Positions 11,259-63,666 of a stretch of 64,000 nucleotides of DNA are shown here, in pieces (the first letter of the stretch is position 1; every line of letters begins with the position of its first letter). Origin of the DNA: Podarcis gaigeae (taxonomy: Eukaryota); assembly GCA_964106915.2 (NCBI GenBank), contig OZ066931.1; one strand, 5' to 3'. A program made the position numbers and the translations under genes. The notes beneath the pieces are model-generated. The model had not been told where the DNA came from. It ran no database searches and saw only the letters and a program-made list of their open reading frames with translations.

Positions 11259-11344
11259 CTGTGCAAATCCGCTTCTTTGGCGTCTAAGAAGTTCACTGTG
11301 TATTTAACAGATTTGGCCATTAGAATCCTGATATCAAAGGTGTC
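11259..11344 (-). CDS. CARM1: CARM1 exon 9 ([29 protein letters not shown])
   Basis: cccaag acceptor, AG|gtatgt donor, 86 nt. Confidence 0.97.
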
Positions 11345-11737
11345 CTTGGGAAGAGAAGCACATAAATGAAAACCTCTGGTTGGGTCAGGAAGTGGAAAAC
11401 TACAAGTCTGAGCTGCTCTCCACTCACTTCCACTCCCAGACAAATGTAAAGAAGACAGACAACAGACTACTAACCTACTCTGAGGGCCAGAAGATGCTTG
11501 TGAATATTATGCCATACAACAGAACAATGCCTTTCTTCCCTGCCACCCTAAGAGGGAAGCAGAGATGAGCATCATGGTTGCCAGCCTTGCTCTGTTCCAT
11601 GCAAAACAGTGGCATGAACCAAGACACACTACTCCCCCAGTGCTCAGTGCTTCCTTCAGATGGCAATATCAGTTCCCTAGTGTTTACTTGCTCCATTTGA
11701 AGAAGTCAGACCTGGGATAAGTTACAGGCCACCCAAT

Positions 11738-11884
11738 CAAAACAAAAAAATTCCTTCCAGTAGCACCTTAAAGACCAACTAAGTTAGTTCTTGGTATGAG
11801 CTTTCGTGTGCATGCACACTTCTTCAGATACACTGAAACAGAAGTTTCCAGACCCTTCTATATAGTGAGAAGGTGTAATCTGTA
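11738..11884 (-). mobile_element. Short Penelope-like element terminal fragment
   Basis: 14-bp TSD ACAGGCCACCCAAT (11724-11737, 11885-11898); minus strand carries a hammerhead core followed by GTCTTTAAGGTGCTAC, resembling reptile Penelope pseudo-LTR ends. Confidence 0.75.
11794..11831 (-). ncRNA. Minimal (Penelope-type) hammerhead ribozyme motif
   Basis: Minus strand reads GUAU-CUGAAGA-A-GUGUG(CAUG)CACAC-GAAA-GC-UC/AUAC: complete CUGANGA/GAAA/UH core, 5-bp stem II, 4-bp stem I, palindromic AGCU in place of stem III. Confidence 0.75.
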
Positions 11885-12307
11885 ACAGGCCACCCAATTT
11901 CACCTTTGTTTAAATGTGTCTAACAGCAAAAGCATAAAACTGATGGCTCTCTATATAAGAAAAATGCTTATGTCAGGTGCACTATGGTTTTCAAAATTAA
12001 AGTATAACAGGTGTTCAAGCCATCAAGAGGAGGCTGGAAGCTTGTGGGTTCTCATCAACTGGGCTGATTACTGGTTGTGCTACTTGTGAGCAAGTAACCA
12101 AGCTAGCACATGGTATCAGTCTCTAATGAACACACACAGGCTGTGGTGATTAGACTCCAAAAGCTGGAACCCCCCCCCCCAATTTCTTCTGACAGAAGCT
12201 CCCTTAGGAAGGCTCCGAGGACTAGAGACAGCTCTCAATCACATTTCATCCTTCCCCCTCACCATGCTCCCACCATCAGAAAGAATGTCAACTTTTGCCA
12301 CAACATG

Positions 12308-12700
12308 TCGGTCCTGTATACCTGAAGGAGCGTCTCCACCCCCATCGTTCAGCCCAGACACTGAGATCCAGCGCCAAGGGCCTTCTGGCGGTTCCCTCAT
12401 TGTGAGAAGTGGGGTTACAGAGAACCAGACAGAGGGCCTTCTCGGTAGCGGCGCCCGCCCTGTGGAACGCCCTCCCGTCAGATGTGAAGGAAATAAGCAG
12501 CTATCTTATCTTTAAAAGAAATCTGAAGGCAGCCCTGTTTAGGAAAGTTTTTAATATTTAATGCTGTATCATTTTTAACACTCGATTGGGAGCTGCCCAG
12601 AGTGGCTGGGGAAACTCAGCCAGATGGGCGGGATACTATTAGTATTATTATTAATAATAATAATAATAATAATTACTACTACTACTACTACTATTATTAT
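12308..12700 (+). mobile_element. L2-clade LINE 3' fragment with (AAT/TAC)n tail
   Basis: Encodes an ORF2 C-terminal remnant (RAFSVAAPALWNALP...LKAALF), then 3' UTR GCTGCCCAGAGTGGCTGGGG and a microsatellite tail; several other copies in the window. Confidence 0.85.
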
Positions 12701-12727
12701 GATGTCAGCATTATAGGACAGACTTAC

Positions 12728-12809
12728 CACAACAGGCTGCCTGAAATATTCATCTACTGCTGCACCCCGAAGTGCAGACAAGTCTACCCCATGGAAGGAT
12801 GGCTGATAC
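12728..12809 (-). CDS. CARM1: CARM1 exon 8 (YQPSFHGVDLSALRGAAVDEYFRQPVV)
   Basis: ttgcag acceptor, GTG|gtaagt donor, 82 nt. Confidence 0.97.
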
Positions 12810-37039: not shown

Positions 37040-37990
37040 GCATACCCCTGCGTCCCCCCAGAAAAAAGCACTGCCCGGCACCTCAGCACATGCCCATCGT
37101 GGCACAAACATGCAAACTATCCCTGGGATGCAGGGCCGGCTCACCCACGAGGCAAGGCGACTGCCTCGGGCGGCAGGATCCCAATGTCGGCATTTCATCC
37201 CAACCCCCGTCCCTGAGGCACCTCTTCCCTGACCGCCTTCCTCCTCGGTACGGGGAGACTTGGAGGAAGAGTGAGGCGGCGCCATTCCGGGGGGACCGAA
37301 GTGCCGGTCCCCGTCCCTGGAAGCGTGGCGGAGGTGCGGCACTCTCCACATGCCCAGAGGAACCGGCGCGGGCCCTTTCGCGCCCCAGCCAGCCATCCAT
37401 CCATTCATCCACCCGTCCCTCAGCCCGAGCAGGCCCCTTCCCCGCGCCCGGCCACCTGCCCCGTCTCTCGCCTCCACTCACGGCTATAGAGGGCGAGGCA
37501 GGCGGCGTCGGGCCCGGTGCGGGCCTCGAGGCGGAGCGCCTGCTGCTCCTGGTGCCGCTGGATCTCGCCGTTGGCGTCGCCGATGGTCAGGAGCCGCACG
37601 CCGGGGAAGACCGACACCGACGCCGCCGACGCCATCTTGGCATCCCAGGCCCGACCCGCGGCCGCCGCTGCTGCTGCTGCTGTGAGGGGCGCCGAGGAGG
37701 AGGCGCAGCAGCAGGAGGAGAGGCCGGAAGCCGCGCCTCCTGAGCGCTGCCGCTCAGCCAGTGGGACAGCGCCCCGTGCGGGCGGCGGTGGAAGGAGCTC
37801 GCCGCGAAGGAGCCAGTGGACGGGGGGGGGCCGACAAGGGCGGAGGAGGGCGACCCCTGCCGGCCGACAGCGGAGACAGCGCCCGAGGGGAAAAGCGGGC
37901 GAAGGGGAAAGAGGCGAGGTTAAAGGGCCGAAGCGATCGTGCGTGCATTTCCGGATCCCAAGCGCGGCGGCAAATTCCTGCATTGTACGG
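37040..37990. promoter_or_regulatory. CpG island / CARM1 promoter and exon 1
   Basis: Sharp rise in GC and CpG density; GGGCGG boxes; YY1-like CAAGATGGCG overlapping the CARM1 ATG. Confidence 0.88.
37482..37635 (-). CDS. CARM1: CARM1 exon 1 coding part (MASAASVSVFPGVRLLTIGDANGEIQRHQEQQALRLEARTGPDAACLALYS)
   Basis: Strong Kozak aagATGg, C|gtgagt donor; phase 1 matches exon 2. Confidence 0.95.
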
Positions 37991-41793: not shown

Positions 41794-42378
41794 CAGTAGG
41801 GTATGGCAGCAGATTGGCAGTAGGGGAAAGCATACTCTCCAACATTTTCTCACCCAAATCCAGAGCATACCCCACCCTGCTGCCACCCCACCCCATCCGC
41901 TGTAGTCACCCCACCCCACAGCGGTGTTCATGTTGTTGCCTGCTGAGGGAAGGCAACTGACTAATTTACATGTATGCAAGTGAAGGATCAGTAGTAACCA
42001 TCTTAGCTGAACCAAAAGAGCAGCCTGCCTGATGGACCAGTTTCCCTGGCAAAGGAACAGTTGGAAAATATTATGCAAGCCACTGCAGATACCAGTTTCT
42101 TCTCAGCAAGAGCTTATGCCACAACAGATATGTTCATTAGTCTTTAAGGTGCCCCCAGAATGCACTATTGCTTTTGATCCTGGAAAGTTATTCTCAATTT
42201 CCCAGTGTTTTTAGAAGGCAAAGCAAAACACTTGGTTGCAGGCACTTAAAGAAAGTCTGAGGATATGCGATACAAATGCTGCTGTTTTCAGCAGAATAAA
42301 ATAAAAACTGTTCTTTTTGTCTCAAACATGCAAATATGCAGGCAATTGCATTATTTTTGAAGGTTAAGTCACCCAGTT

Positions 42379-44469: not shown

Positions 44470-44613
44470 GCCTGGATAGCTCAGCTGGTTAGAGCATGGT
44501 GCTGATAATGCCAAGGTTGCAGGTTCAATCCCTGGACAGCTGCATATTCCTGCATTGCAGGGGGCTGGACTAGATGATCCTCGGCGTCCCTTCCAACTCT
44601 ACAATTCTTTGAT
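44470..44613 (+). mobile_element. SINE with tRNA-Ile-derived head and CR1-derived tail
   Basis: TAGCTCAGCTGGTTAGAGCATGGTGCTGATAATGCCAAGGTTGCAGGTTCAATCCC followed by TTCCTGCATTGCAGGGGGCTGGACTAGATGA...CCCTTCCAACTCT. Confidence 0.8.
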
Positions 44614-49031: not shown

Positions 49032-49180
49032 CCAAGGTATAGCTCAGTTGGTTGAGCATGAGACTCTTAATCTCTGGGTCATGGTTTTGAGACCATGAGT
49101 GAAAGATTCCTGCATTGCAGGGGGTTGGACTAGGTGACACTTATGGTCCCTTCCAACTCCATGAGTCTGTGATTCTGTGA
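49032..49180 (+). mobile_element. SINE with tRNA-Lys(CTT)-derived head and CR1-derived tail
   Basis: TAGCTCAGTTGGTTGAGCATGAGACTCTTAATCTC followed by TTCCTGCATTGCAGGGGGTTGGACTAG...GGTCCCTTCCAACTC and a (GATTCTGT)-type tail. Confidence 0.8.
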
Positions 49181-54449: not shown

Positions 54450-55250
54450 GGGCTCCATGCAGCGGATAACACGAGCCACGCTGCCTCCTTTACGCGCGGC
54501 TTTCTGCCCGCCGAGTTTGTCCGATCAGCCGCTTCGGCTTGCCCTGAGAAAGACAAAGCGATGGACAAATCGAATAAGGAATAAGCAGAAGGGAGGGAGA
54601 AAGAAAAATGCGGCCCCGGGCCCCGTCGGAGCGCGAGGCTGCAGCTGCTCTGTGCGCGCCCTCCGGCGCCGGCGTCCCGCCCGAGCGCGGCCGCCTCTTC
54701 CTCTCCAAGGAGGCGGCCCGGCCCCGCTCTCCTTCCGGCGCCAGGAAGGACCCCGACGATGGCGGCGGCCGCGGCCCTTGCGCTCGGGCTGCCGCTGCTG
54801 CTCCTGGGGGCGCCCCGAGGGGTCCCCGGCCAGGCCCACCCGCCGCCGCCGCAGGACGCCGAGTTCACCTTCCTGCTGCCGGCCGGGCGCCGGGAGTGCT
54901 TCTACCAGGGCGCGCCGGGCAACGGCTCCATGGAGCTGGAGTACCAGGTGAGGCTGGGTAGGGGTCCACAATCCGGCCCCCAAAACCAGGCGCATGGGGA
55001 TTGGAGGGGGGCAACCGGCCCTCTTCTTCCTGCTCAGCCCCTGGTGCTGGTGGCAGAGGGGAGCGGGGGGGTAGACTGCCCCCGAAGGTGGAGTTCCCCC
55101 TTGGCTACCGCGACGGAGGCTGTGCGCGCACAGCGCTGCCCTTTGCTCCGCATCCAGGAGGACGTTAGTCGCGATCCGTATCACTTTCTTAGGAAACGCT
55201 GCTTTTGTATGCACTTCCCCTACACGCCCCCCCCCCCGCGCCACCACCAA
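54450..55250. promoter_or_regulatory. CpG island / TMED1 promoter and exon 1
   Basis: High GC and CpG density spanning the TMED1 ATG. Confidence 0.88.
54759..54947 (+). CDS. TMED1: TMED1 exon 1 (signal peptide and start of GOLD domain, [16 protein letters not shown])
   Basis: acgATGg start, CAG|gtgagg donor, 189 nt. Confidence 0.95.
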
Positions 55251-55974
55251 ACCAGCTTTGATCCGAACTGGGTGGGAATGAATGACCTGGCTGCGTTTTA
55301 AGCCAGCGGAACCATGGAGCCTTTAAGTATTGCGTTCTGTGTGGATTTATCAGCAGCCAGATGACTCGCATGTTTTTTCTTCTAGTAAAACAAAACCCTG
55401 TAACTTTTCGAGACAGTTTGAGCAGCCAATGTATCTGACAGATCCCTCTTAAAAGCCGTTTGCCATTGCCTTGCCAAGTTTTTATTGTTTCCTTAACTTA
55501 ACTTTTATTTAAGTTAAGTGATGAATTAATATGTTTAATTTCATAATGTGAAGATCTAAGGATGTTAATGTTTAAGTTAAATTTTATAATAACTGTGATT
55601 TGGAAAACCGTTAAAAGGACCTGCAATGAAATTCAACCAAGGGGAAGCGAGGAAATTACTTAACAATGTTAATAAGTGTAATTTTTAATAAGGCTATGAT
55701 TTATGTTTGTTTGTCTTATGTGTTTGTTGGTTTATAATGTTGTGAAAACTAATTAAAACAAATTCGGAGTTTTTATTGTTTCCTTCCTAGTTGCCCAGCA
55801 TAGTTACCCTCAGAACAGTCTTGCAAAGCGGGCTGGGTTTTTAAAAAGTTGCTCAGCTCCAGCAGGTTGCCTGATATTCAAATAAAGATTTGTAGCCATT
55901 TGCCACTTCTCATTGGTGGCTTTTCTGGGCATAGTGGCTCTTTCCATCATGCAACTCTTGCTGTTGCCATTTAG

Positions 55975-56072
55975 GTTATTGGTGGAGCAGGACTGGACGT
56001 TGACTTCTCCTTGGAAAGTCCTTCAGGCACATTGCTGGTTGATGAATACCGGAGATCGGATGGGGTTCACAC
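55975..56072 (+). CDS. TMED1: TMED1 exon 2 ([33 protein letters not shown])
   Basis: atttag acceptor, AC|gtgagt donor, 98 nt. Confidence 0.96.
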
Positions 56073-56484
56073 GTGAGTCATGCTGCTTTTATGCTTTGGA
56101 GTGAAGGATAATTAAGTGGCACTGAGTGGGGAGGGCCAGAGGGGCAGTGGCTCTGGGTGAATTTTTTTGGGGGTGCATTTTGCTCCTCGCCTCCCTGCCA
56201 GCCCTGTGCCACTGCTTGGCTCTGGTGGGCAGTGGGGGTCACTCCCACAGCATATGCGAGGGCTGGAAGTGGGCTCCATTCACCCTCCACGCCCCCCCCC
56301 AGGCGCGCATACCCGCTGGGATACTCATGAGAAAGCCATTGCTTGCCCATGGTCCAGGTGCTTTTACAAGTAGCAAAAATATGAAGAATTTGTGTATCTG
56401 ATTATGATTGTTTAATGCACTTTGGCTAGTCCAGCTTTGCAGGATATATCTGCCTTCATCACCCTCTTTGTTGGTTTCTTTCAG

Positions 56485-56668
56485 CATTGAGCCTACGGAG
56501 GGAGGAGATTACAAGCTGTGCTTCGACAACTCCTTCAGCACTATATCGGAGAAGTTGGTGTTCTTTGAACTGATCTTTGACAGCGCCCAGGAAGATGAGG
56601 ACTTGAACAATTGGGCAGAAGTGGCCGAACCAGAGGAGATGCTCGACATAAAGATAGAAGACATTAAG
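56485..56668 (+). CDS. TMED1: TMED1 exon 3 ([33 protein letters not shown]...IEDIK)
   Basis: tttcag acceptor, AAG|gtgggc donor, 184 nt. Confidence 0.96.
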
Positions 56669-58379
56669 GTGGGCAAAGAGGCTACAGGAGAAATGCCTAG
56701 TGCTGAGATGTGGTGGAGTTAGGCAGAATAACAGTGGCATTCGATGGGAAAGAGACCAGGATAGCTCCACTCTTCTGCAACTGTGCACAGAGTAACCTTG
56801 CCAGACAAAGCAGATGGGGTCAGCTGCTGCCTGGGCTTCCAGGTATTTAGCTGATGCAGGAGGAATGCTCCACAATGGGAGCCTAACAATTAGTTCCTTT
56901 CCTGGATCTTCACTCCCCTTTTCCAAATGCCCCATGCCTGATGGGGATGGGTGGGAAAGAGTACCTGCATTTCTGAAGCGCTGGCCAAAGCCCTGCAAAT
57001 CAACCCAAGTCCTATGTGTGGAATGGATCTTCCCATCATTACTGTCAGTACGTGGCTAGTGGCTTAATAAATTAGGATGTTCACATTTGTGGCTTTGCCC
57101 CTAAGAGACCTACCATTTAGGCTTTGCTGAAGAGGTGAACATGGTAATTGACACACTTGTGTGAATTAGTGTCTGTTTGTGTGTGTAACTTTGTATTAAT
57201 GTAGCATTTTTATATGTAACACTGTAGTTTCGCGATCGTTTTTTAAAAAAATACCTGTTGTGCCTTCAGTTTTTTGTACACCACATAGATACATTTTTGA
57301 TATATTAAGCAGTATAGAAATTAAATAATCCATCAACTACATAGGTACATAAATTTGAAATAGACTCATGAGTAATTTTGGGTTAATACTAGAGGTAGTT
57401 GTTAATCAAAGCCCTTCCACTGTGTTCCAGAAATTGTGTTCAGAAAGCAGCTCCCTGTTGTTTCAAGACCCATTTATTTTATTTTACAACATTACCTATA
57501 TGGCAGAAATCTTTTCAGCTCCCCAAACCAGAGGGTGACTTGGTTCAAGGAAGGCTCCTGATTAATATTAACAGTGCAAGTTGGTCAACTAGCCAATTTC
57601 AAGTCATAAGGTTACAAAGCTGACTTGTTTAACTGAGTAGTATTTGTTTTAAACCAGGAATCTTGGTTTTTGTTGTTTTTTAAAAAAGGTACATCTAACA
57701 AAATTCCTCCTCAGCTGCACATCAGGGGAAAATACTGTGTCCAACTCATGGTGCGCAGGGTGTGGTCCGAAGGCACATGATGTGCAATCACCCTGCTGAA
57801 GCTAAGCAGCTCTGGGTCTCATTGTTGGTAGTGGCAGTACTTGCCAGGCACTTTGGTACACGTGGACTTTGAGACCAGAAATGCAGACAGCAGGTGTCTT
57901 CTTGTTACCGCCTTTGTGGCTTAGTACTCTGGTTAAAGAAGAAAATGAAACTAGCTGTTACTCTTAATAGGTTTTGGCAATCATTGCAAACCTGCATTTT
58001 CACTGCTTTGAAACAGTGCAAAGGCAACAGAAGGAGTAATTTTTTAATCCAGCCAGGAAAGGTTTTTCAATATCTTAGAATTATTTGGGTCAGCGTAAAG
58101 GGAAGGTACAGATCTGTCAGGAATATCTCTGGGGTTGTGGTACATGAATGCACAGTGATTCTTCATGGCGTTTTAATGGATGTTGAAATACTTGTGCTTA
58201 AGTTCTGATGGTCACGACAAAAAATTTTTTGGTTAACAATAATAGACATGGTGCCTGATCATTTGTTAGGTGAAGAATCTGACTCCATGTGATTTGAATT
58301 TGGCTACAATGGTTTCCTTTGCCCCAAAACACATCTTTGCTCCAAACACATCTATTCTCCTTTGTTCTCACCATTGTAG

Positions 58380-62722: not shown

Positions 62723-63666
62723 CAGTGGTGCCTCGCAAGACGAAATTAATTCGTTCCGCAAGTTTTTTCGTCTTGCGAAGCACGGTTTCCCATAGGAATG
62801 CATTAAAAATCAATGCGTTCCTATGGAAACCGCCTTCAGACCAGGTCCGGGACAGTCTGTCCCCCGACCTCCTCTGAAGGCTTGGGGGGGGGGACAAGGG
62901 CTTTTCTTCCCACCCCCAGCATTTTAAAAAACCCCGGGACATCCGCTGTCCCAGGGTTTTTTTAAATGCTGGCGAGCGGGGGGCGAAAGTCTTTGCTCCC
63001 CCCCACCTGCCTTCAAAAGCCGTCCGGGACAGCGGAGAAACACGCTGCGTTTCTCCGCTCTCCCGGGAAGGCAGGCAGGGGGGAGCAAAGACTTTTGGCC
63101 CCCGCCAGCCTTCAGAAGAGGTCCTGGACCTCTTCTGAAGGCGGGCGGGGGACGAAAGTCTTTGCTCCCCCCCGCCTGCCTTCAAAAGCCGTCCGGGACA
63201 GCGGAGAAACATGCTGCGTTTCTCCGCTCTCCCGGGAAGGCAGGCAGGGGGGAGCAAAGACTTTTGCCCCCCACCAGCCTTCAGAAGAGGTCCTGGACCT
63301 CTTCTGAAGGCCGGCGGGGGGGCAAAAGTCTTTGCTCCCCCCGCCTGCCTTCAAAAGCCGTCCGTGATAGCGGGAAGCGCTTCCCTGCTATCCCGGACTG
63401 CTTTTAAAATGCTGGTGGTGGGGAGCAAAGCCTTTCGGCCCCCGCCGGCCTTCCTGGACCTCTTCTGAAGGCCGGAGGGGGGGAAAGGCTTTGCTCCCCA
63501 CCGCCAGCATTTAAAAGAGGTCCCCGGAGATTTCCCTATGGGCTTTCTTCTTGCGAAGCAAGCCCATAGGGAAATTCGTCTTGCGAAGTGCCTCAAAAAA
63601 CGGAAAACCCTTTCGTCTTGCGGGTTTTTCGTCTTGCGAGGCCTTCGTCTTTGCGGGGCACCACTG
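62723..63666. mobile_element. Tigger-type MITE family B, long copy with internal fold-back repeat array
   Basis: TA TSD; TIRs CAGTGGTGCCTCGCAAGACGAA / TTGCGGGGCACCACTG; ends match 23293-23614 in the opposite orientation. Confidence 0.88.

Follow-up and report, generated by a model that had tools for sequence, protein, structure and literature searches.

A minimal hammerhead ribozyme motif lies in an intron of a protein-coding gene in the 64,000-nucleotide stretch of Podarcis gaigeae DNA analysed here (hereafter the window), and it raises the question of whether the pre-mRNA of that gene is cut by it or whether the motif is carried passively by an inserted repeat. The gene was identified as CARM1 on the minus strand, one exon of which matched solved CARM1 chains (E 1.4e-33). 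Because eight CARM1 coding exons precede the host intron, the first of them near 37,640, this is intron 8 when coding exons are counted. The exon layout and the minus-strand reading thus agree with the initial annotation, which had placed the hammerhead in sense orientation within CARM1 intron 8. The predicted cut site is located 930 nt past the donor and 453 nt ahead of the acceptor. Divergently from CARM1, exons on the plus strand at about 54700-56720 resemble a gene of the TMED/p24 family, with a signal peptide and a GOLD-like segment, for which human synteny would suggest the name TMED1. A tandem repeat with a GC-rich unit of 169 bp (2.4 copies, 94% matches) was observed at 62971-63373.

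The reading of the minus strand from 11831 to 11794 given in the initial annotation was reproduced letter for letter, with all catalytic core bases present (Table 1), and the scissile bond is predicted between 11798 and 11797, from C17 at 11798. A descriptor of minimal hammerheads (min-HHRs), applied to both strands, had one match in the window and none in 150 simulated 64-kb sequences (3rd-order Markov), and no second hammerhead was found with it. The Rfam hammerhead models, proposed in the same annotation as a check, returned nothing: the whole window at gathering score gave two matches, both tRNA-like, and the region 11500-12100 at E ≤ 10 gave five weak matches, all unrelated to hammerheads. 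This silence was discounted as a test of absence because min-HHRs lack stem III. The fold of the 38-mer is no more stable than those of its own shuffles (z −0.44); identification of the hammerhead relies on the core letters and the stems rather than on folding energy. Elsewhere in the window, an older 5′-truncated remnant related to the insert repeat was observed at 42107-42169, with the hammerhead sense on the plus strand (nhmmer E 0.044); of the ribozyme it has retained a decayed 3′ half, the downstream box is likewise present, and the CUGA core has been lost. The tRNA-like matches on the plus strand at 44477-44535 and 49040-49096 cover model positions 8-63 only and are likely heads of tRNA-derived SINEs.

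Table 1. Features of CARM1 intron 8 and of the insertion that it carries, in window coordinates.
Feature	Positions	Strand	Description
CARM1 coding exon 8	12728..12809	-	
CARM1 intron 8	11345..12727	-	1,383 nt
CARM1 coding exon 9	11259..11344	-	
Target-site duplication, right copy	11885..11898		Identical to the left 14-mer
Target-site duplication, left copy	11724..11737		14 bp, exact; single copy at the empty site in runs X5 and X10
Insertion	11738..11884	-	147 bp; one copy of a high-copy repeat, likely a Penelope-like element (PLE) pseudo-LTR (pLTR)
Junction filler	11876..11884		9 bp; absent from family contigs, which carry other letters past 11875
TATA-like box	11857..11864	-	7 of 8 matches to the TATA-box consensus TATAWAWR; first base 11864, 30 nt before the initiator A
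Initiator-like TCAGT	11832..11836	-	Putative transcription start A 11834, 3 nt before stem I
Minimal type I hammerhead (min-HHR)	11794..11831	-	38 nt; from core letters and stems and the published min-HHR consensus (PMC4209133 Fig. S3)
Stem I, 5′ strand	11828..11831	-	4 bp, pairs with 11794-11797
Core C3-A9 and extra A ahead of G10.1	11820..11827	-	CUGAAGA 11827-11821, extra A 11820
Stem II and loop	11806..11819	-	5 bp, 4-nt loop; all 14 bases a perfect palindrome (palindrome test, self-match)
G12-A13-A14-A15.1, AGCU and C17	11798..11805	-	G12 11805; AGCU 11802-11799 replaces stem III; C17 11798
Predicted masking segment	11754..11774	-	Prediction; pairs with 11840-11821, covering stem I and core
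U-rich 3′ end of the insert copy	11738..11753	-	Family 3′ ends cluster at 11737-11756

The claim of a 147-bp insert between perfect 14-bp target-site duplications (TSDs) was confirmed, 11738-11884 being flanked by identical 14-mers. These are a genuine duplication, because single contigs of the public runs X5 and X10 skip exactly 161 bases, that is, 147 + 14. The insert is shortened at both ends in comparison with longer members of its family, whose contigs continue beyond 11875 and beyond 11738; past 11738 an extension of about 20 letters is shared in 4 of 4 runs (30 letters are visible per loose end). An optional 3′ tail of 30-40 bp is described for part of the PLE copies in the accessible part of PMC8557442, and TSDs of 8 and 10 bp for rotifer pLTR elements in that of PMC3846280. 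Within the right junction, the bases 11880-11885 are reverse-complementary to 11722-11727 in the target, from which we infer that the filler arose by templated fill-in.

Part of the region 11300-12800 is contained in 20 of the 23 listed public runs (9 studies), and four of the 23 were compared over 11450-12150. The empty site was found in one contig each of X5 (organism label C) and X10 (organism label E). The run X4 comes from organism label A, which had the highest share among the listed runs and is the best-matching species, though from a sample other than that of the top run. It holds the filled right junction, on a contig that spans from 11849 in the insert to 12150 in the flank; it showed no empty-site joint, its coverage including the right junction and leaving the left one outside. 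Over about 500 bases of flank, X5 departs from the window at three places and X10 at about 11, with a 25-base gap in addition, so that the flanks of the empty-site contigs are diverged from the window by about 0.6-2%. The insertion is recent, because two runs from other species hold the empty site in such little-diverged flanks; these are 2 of the 2 other-species DNA-like runs examined, and the insertion is accordingly non-conserved. These sequence comparisons would make it very recent or still polymorphic, postdating very shallow splits or segregating across them.

The repeat itself is abundant. In the three DNA-like runs 8,134, 7,178 and 8,787 contigs were found on the insert, and the summed contig depth there exceeded the flank depth by a factor of 1.7-2.2 x 10^5 in each of the three, a depth that is not to be equated with copy number. 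Two core positions are frequently altered across the family, G12 in 11.6-12.9% and C11.1 in 9.7-10.8% of its depth in these runs; they are the two bases of one CpG and the changes fit CpG decay. At all listed variable places the window copy agrees with the family majority. Most likely, family copies decay after insertion, and the hammerhead of the window would be intact because the copy is young. A separate observation concerns X15, a run guessed to be RNA and bearing another organism label, where depth upstream of 11834 is 6% (31-43% in the three DNA-like runs), depth is level across the cut site, and changes amount to 2% at G12 and 1% at C11.1, versus 10-13% in the DNA-like runs. That pattern would be compatible with short, uncleaved RNAs that were begun at the initiator in young copies, with the proviso that contigs cannot show RNA starts or levels.

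The ends of the family members bear on how the copies were made. Rotifer pLTRs are known to have a TATA box with an initiator (Inr) (PMC3846280), and in Drosophila a promoter within the pLTR has been described (PMC2377424), as far as the accessible parts of these reports go. The best-supported 5′-side ends of the family of the insert fall at 11831-11833 and have unrelated flanks; 61-70 contigs end at 11831 in each DNA-like run, with a flank agreement of 0.37, that is, with many unrelated flanks. No loose ends at 11797-11798, the predicted cut site, occurred among the matches listed (24 rows, with 536 further rows). Relative to the ribozyme, only 6-13% of the family depth reaches the TATA region. 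From these ends we infer that many copies would derive from uncleaved RNA begun at the promoter at 11834. The window copy would derive from read-through RNA and kept the promoter, because it extends to 11875.

Two further observations were made on this part of the repeat. Inspected by eye, 7 of the 56 min-HHRs in Fig. S3 of PMC4209133 carry UCAG shortly ahead of the CUGA core, and an initiator beside the ribozyme may recur across several PLE families. Among the joints on 11799-11857, 6 of the 12 listed (17 further rows) link the 5′ part of a copy to 11799-11803, which corresponds to GAAAGC just ahead of the cut site; the 5′ parts span 11820-11857, four of them at 11833. This suggests either that older copies have a favoured point at which new ones were inserted, or that partial tandems are present.

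With regard to the origin of the repeat, the initial annotation had described a minimal hammerhead delivered by a Penelope-type mini-insertion between TSDs. The min-HHR features, the TSD and the empty site support the ribozyme type and the insertion, and the PLE origin itself is likely. The boxes CUGANGA, GAAA and NUH of PLE min-HHRs are all found in 11831-11794, together with the extra base between positions 9 and 10.1 (A 11820), the G10.1-C11.1 pair (G 11819 with C 11806), the short helix I and a helix II of at least 5 pairs (4 and 5 bp, respectively), and a palindromic 15-16 segment (AGCU) where helix III is absent. The repeat also shares with PLEs the large dispersed family, the short TSD and the promoter motifs of the pLTR. 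Inverted 5′-truncated copies adjoining direct copies are given as typical of PLEs in the accessible part of PMC8557442, and three opposite-strand joints were found in family contigs, a trait seen in the family and not in the window copy. One database protein, P0002, runs through the insert repeat in one orientation and afterwards in the opposite one, that is, as an inverted pair. Taken together, the ribozyme type and these structural hallmarks indicate that the repeat is likely a PLE terminal repeat (pLTR).

Searched against protein sequences, the read-through translation of the insert gave two candidates (P0002 and P0003), both of them spurious short ORFs over other copies of the repeat, in which no Pfam family at the cut-off and no RT or GIY-YIG was found. 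They read these copies in the frame of the ATG in loop II, which in the window opens a frame of 9 codons (11813-11784, minus strand). Pattern scans yielded 29 metagenome and 12 prokaryote loci, none of which aligned to the insert apart from one match of 39 bases (79%, E 0.006); these 41 loci were rejected as family members on the alignments, and most look like chance matches. Apparently unrelated minimal hammerheads were observed in the metagenome loci L016 (277-304 and 1357-1384), L012 (277-304) and L011 (31-61), the two of L016 being inverted and about 1.1 kb apart, which is a PLE-like layout.

The same repeat might instead be a non-autonomous family, SINE-like or made of retrozyme monomers, that has a PLE-type hammerhead and is mobilized by the machinery of another element. 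Many copies are apparently short, running from 11831-11833 to the U-rich end, the clean 14-bp TSD fits LINE-type insertion too, the protein search gave the result described above, and the accessible part of bioRxiv 10.64898/2026.07.22.740005 reports retrozyme monomers dispersed in vertebrate genomes. However, no tandem array was found at the locus (none among 24 tandem-repeat rows) and no canonical stem I/III is present, the family sequence runs upstream of the promoter and past the 3′ end, and the inverted joints are typical of PLEs. This reading also overlaps with a PLE origin, because a derivation of retrozymes from PLEs has been argued (bioRxiv 10.64898/2026.07.22.740005, in part). It is regarded as improbable and would have the same consequence for CARM1.

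The promoter of the insert could matter to the host more than its ribozyme, the sense TATA/Inr starting an internal CARM1 transcript from exon 9 onward and a CARM1 protein without most of the catalytic domain. The spacing of exactly 30 nt between the TATA-like box and the Inr A, at which family ends pile up, agrees with such a start. The insert is among the minority of copies that keep the TATA region, an in-frame ATG lies in exon 9 at 11320, a donor-like site (6 of 9) lies at 11766, and pLTR promoters have been published (PMC3846280 and PMC2377424, in part). Nevertheless, in the unspliced transcript the ATG of exon 9 comes after eight others, and the insertion is non-conserved, which makes this possibility quite improbable. 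Core promoters that lack upstream activators are usually silent within the body of a transcribed gene, and this was counted against it as well.

The behaviour of the ribozyme in the intronic RNA was approached by folding with nearest-neighbour energies, in which core contacts, Mg2+ and protein are omitted. Pairing of 11774-11754 with 11840-11821 was predicted with probabilities mostly of 0.8-1.0 in three folds. The probability of an open core with both stem I and stem II in place was 2e-4 for the transcript from 11834, 1e-6 to 6e-5 in local read-through folds, and up to 0.003-0.05 in unlimited-span folds of 251-701-nt windows. For a growing transcript it was 0.03-0.15 with the 3′ end at 11790-11770 and 0.01-0.13 at 11720. 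The upstream UUCAG was rejected as the main blocker of the core in read-through RNA, its pair probability being 0.001-0.21, and the downstream segment dominates. Of 638 tiles on the same strand, only 4 reached the duplex energy of the masking helix (−17.4 kcal/mol). A selected switch is unsupported, since 110 and 72 shuffled downstream segments, out of 500 each, masked the core at least as well. Masking of the core is thus, in these models, the likely state and not a demonstrated switch.

The statement of the initial annotation that PLE hammerheads cleave poorly as monomers is in line with the accessible part of PMC4209133, in which a single min-HHR did not cleave and dimers or trimers showed low cleavage. 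It had further proposed that the CARM1 pre-mRNA carries a latent self-cleavage site, which could be activated by other Penelope-derived RNAs through the palindromic AGCU. For such a dimer of the 38-mer, the double hammerhead was predicted at −11.1 kcal/mol versus −14.6 kcal/mol for two monomer ensembles, a deficit of 3.5 kcal/mol relative to the free monomers. The predicted dimer ensemble is led by the far stronger stem II palindrome (−31.1 kcal/mol), with stem III unformed, and with the core masked in addition these models do not favour activation through AGCU.

There remains the reading that assisted cleavage in trans, by PLE-derived RNA via AGCU or, more plausibly, by the PLE protein, measurably alters CARM1 splicing or turnover in carriers of the insertion. 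All core bases are present on the transcribed strand, possible partner copies are abundant in the genome, and the folding models predict a brief window for stems I and II before the masking segment is made (P 0.03-0.15). The PLE hammerhead of the anole cleaves only with the PLE protein, and does so once it is added (PMC11167929, in part). On the other side, the accessible part of the same report describes protein binding as needing ORF sequence outside the pLTR, uncleaved RNA as the main insertion template, and RNA-seq with neither read starts nor read ends at the cut site. Even cis dimers are slow to cleave, according to the accessible parts of PMC4209133 and bioRxiv 10.64898/2026.07.22.740005, in the latter of which 1 of 9 frog dimer elements was cleaved; hammerheads without contacts between stems I and II failed in cells (PMC10761166, in part). 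In the frog, 42-44% of the copies are intronic, yet they are depleted in introns after normalization (bioRxiv 10.64898/2026.07.22.740005, in part), which suggests that some intronic copies do cost fitness and counts against the reading of a passive passenger. The predicted disadvantage of the trans double hammerhead and its competition with the palindrome dimer, the empty site in both other-species runs and the lack of family ends at the cut site among the matches listed also count against assisted cleavage, and an effect of it on CARM1 is highly improbable. Intronic cuts are, moreover, often tolerated through exon tethering. The proposed effect on splicing or turnover of CARM1 is thus unsupported, the site being empty in 2 of 2 other-species runs and the family being abundant and decaying in its core. 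A similarly slight chance is given to a composite in which this reptilian PLE family spawned SINE-like short RNAs that start at the TATA/Inr, 3 nt ahead of the hammerhead, and whose core stays closed through the 3′ segment of the element unless the PLE protein releases it; during activity of the element, protein or RNAs would then cut sense intronic copies in trans. Were it true, lineage-specific insertions would make the CARM1 pre-mRNA and many other genes sensitive to transposon activity.

The preferred explanation, held with high confidence, is that the insert is a recent TSD-flanked copy of an abundant repeat, likely a reptilian PLE pLTR, whose hammerhead is likely intact only because of its youth and which is predicted to remain uncleaved and to be spliced out without effect. 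Uncleaved PLE read-through RNA would have been reverse-transcribed from a nick at the target (target-primed). Copying would have begun in the U-rich 3′ end at 11738, passed the ribozyme, the initiator and the TATA box, and halted at 11875, where the cDNA end would have been joined through the 9-bp filler with formation of the 14-bp TSD. The shorter family copies starting at 11831-11833 would represent transcripts from the own TATA/Inr promoter of the pLTR. Within intron 8 the ribozyme would have no cis partner for stem III and, in the folding models, its core would be mostly paired with the downstream segment of the element; any RNA partner would pair through the 14-nt palindrome of stem II, leaving the active fold incomplete.

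The locus itself matters little, as one of very many copies in a class of which intronic copies are common in PLE-carrying vertebrates, and the insertion is a clean presence/absence marker among close relatives. The coincidence of the family 5′ ends with the TATA/Inr start, and not with the cut site, agrees with the uncleaved PLE template seen in vitro (PMC11167929, in part) and bears on the question of what PLE hammerheads do. If assisted cleavage of intronic copies were true, it would constitute a transposon route to the regulation of host pre-mRNAs, for which the insertion polymorphism would provide a natural control with and without the insert.

A literature search that was thin on subscription papers found no joint description of CARM1 and a hammerhead; for the insert family, where it was also without repeat databases and several supplements, it likewise found no description. 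Among known systems, the domesticated intronic hammerheads of RECK, CTCL/C10orf118 and DTNB (PMC6155905, in part) resemble the insert in being type I and located on the sense strand of an amniote intron. They are conserved in birds, mammals or reptiles and have contacts between loops I and II, whereas the insert is minimal and without stem III; neither conservation in the orthologous intron (X5 and X10 being empty) nor a canonical helix III, loop I-II contacts or an Rfam match was found for it. The non-LTR retrozymes, as described in the accessible part of bioRxiv 10.64898/2026.07.22.740005, are likewise short non-coding type I repeats, related to pLTRs and with dispersed monomers that are often intronic; they are, however, tandem arrays of at least two hammerhead units, while the insert is a single unit with one descriptor match and no tandem repeat. 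The same source reports that PLEs are not found in birds or mammals, and this, with the turtle origin of the nearest published motif, by itself points to a non-avian reptile host, probably a lizard.

A lizard PLE, the Poseidon element PAc of Anolis carolinensis (Frangieh et al. 2024, PMC11167929), likewise has a hammerhead in its pLTR; its uncleaved RNA template and its optional 3′ 'tail' resemble the template proposed for the insert and the extension seen past 11738, a likeness drawn from the published descriptions. Its nick is AT-rich with an ATT motif, and the inferred nick of the insert falls in AATT (11735-11737/11899), a comparison that concerns one site only. PAc carries an ORF, which starts in stem II, whereas the window copy carries none.

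The closest correspondence is with the PLE min-HHRs of Cervera and De la Pena 2014 (PMC4209133, in its accessible part). These share with the insert the CUGANGAH core with one extra base, the G10.1-C11.1 pair, a 4-bp stem I, a 5-bp stem II, a 15.1-16.1 segment that is palindromic and has no loop 3, flanks that are U-rich on the 5′ and AU-rich on the 3′ side, and an occurrence as dispersed single copies. The insert differs from the published entries in its 4-nt loop II, which gives the 14-nt palindrome, and in having C and not U at position 17, and its family sequence is absent from the 56 entries of Fig. S3. The nearest of these is from the turtle Chrysemys picta bellii, which is not marked in that figure as lying in a recognizable PLE. 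Compared by eye, its stem I (GCAU/AUGC, in the insert GUAU/AUAC) and its stem II (GUGGG/CCCAC, in the insert GUGUG/CACAC) each differ from those of the insert by one compensatory pair. The stem covariation to which the initial annotation had pointed is therefore found in two pairs against the turtle entry, a result in favour of the structure, but not within the family, where none reached 5% of the depth. Judged by its sequence, the insert family is a further example of the PLE min-HHR type already described.
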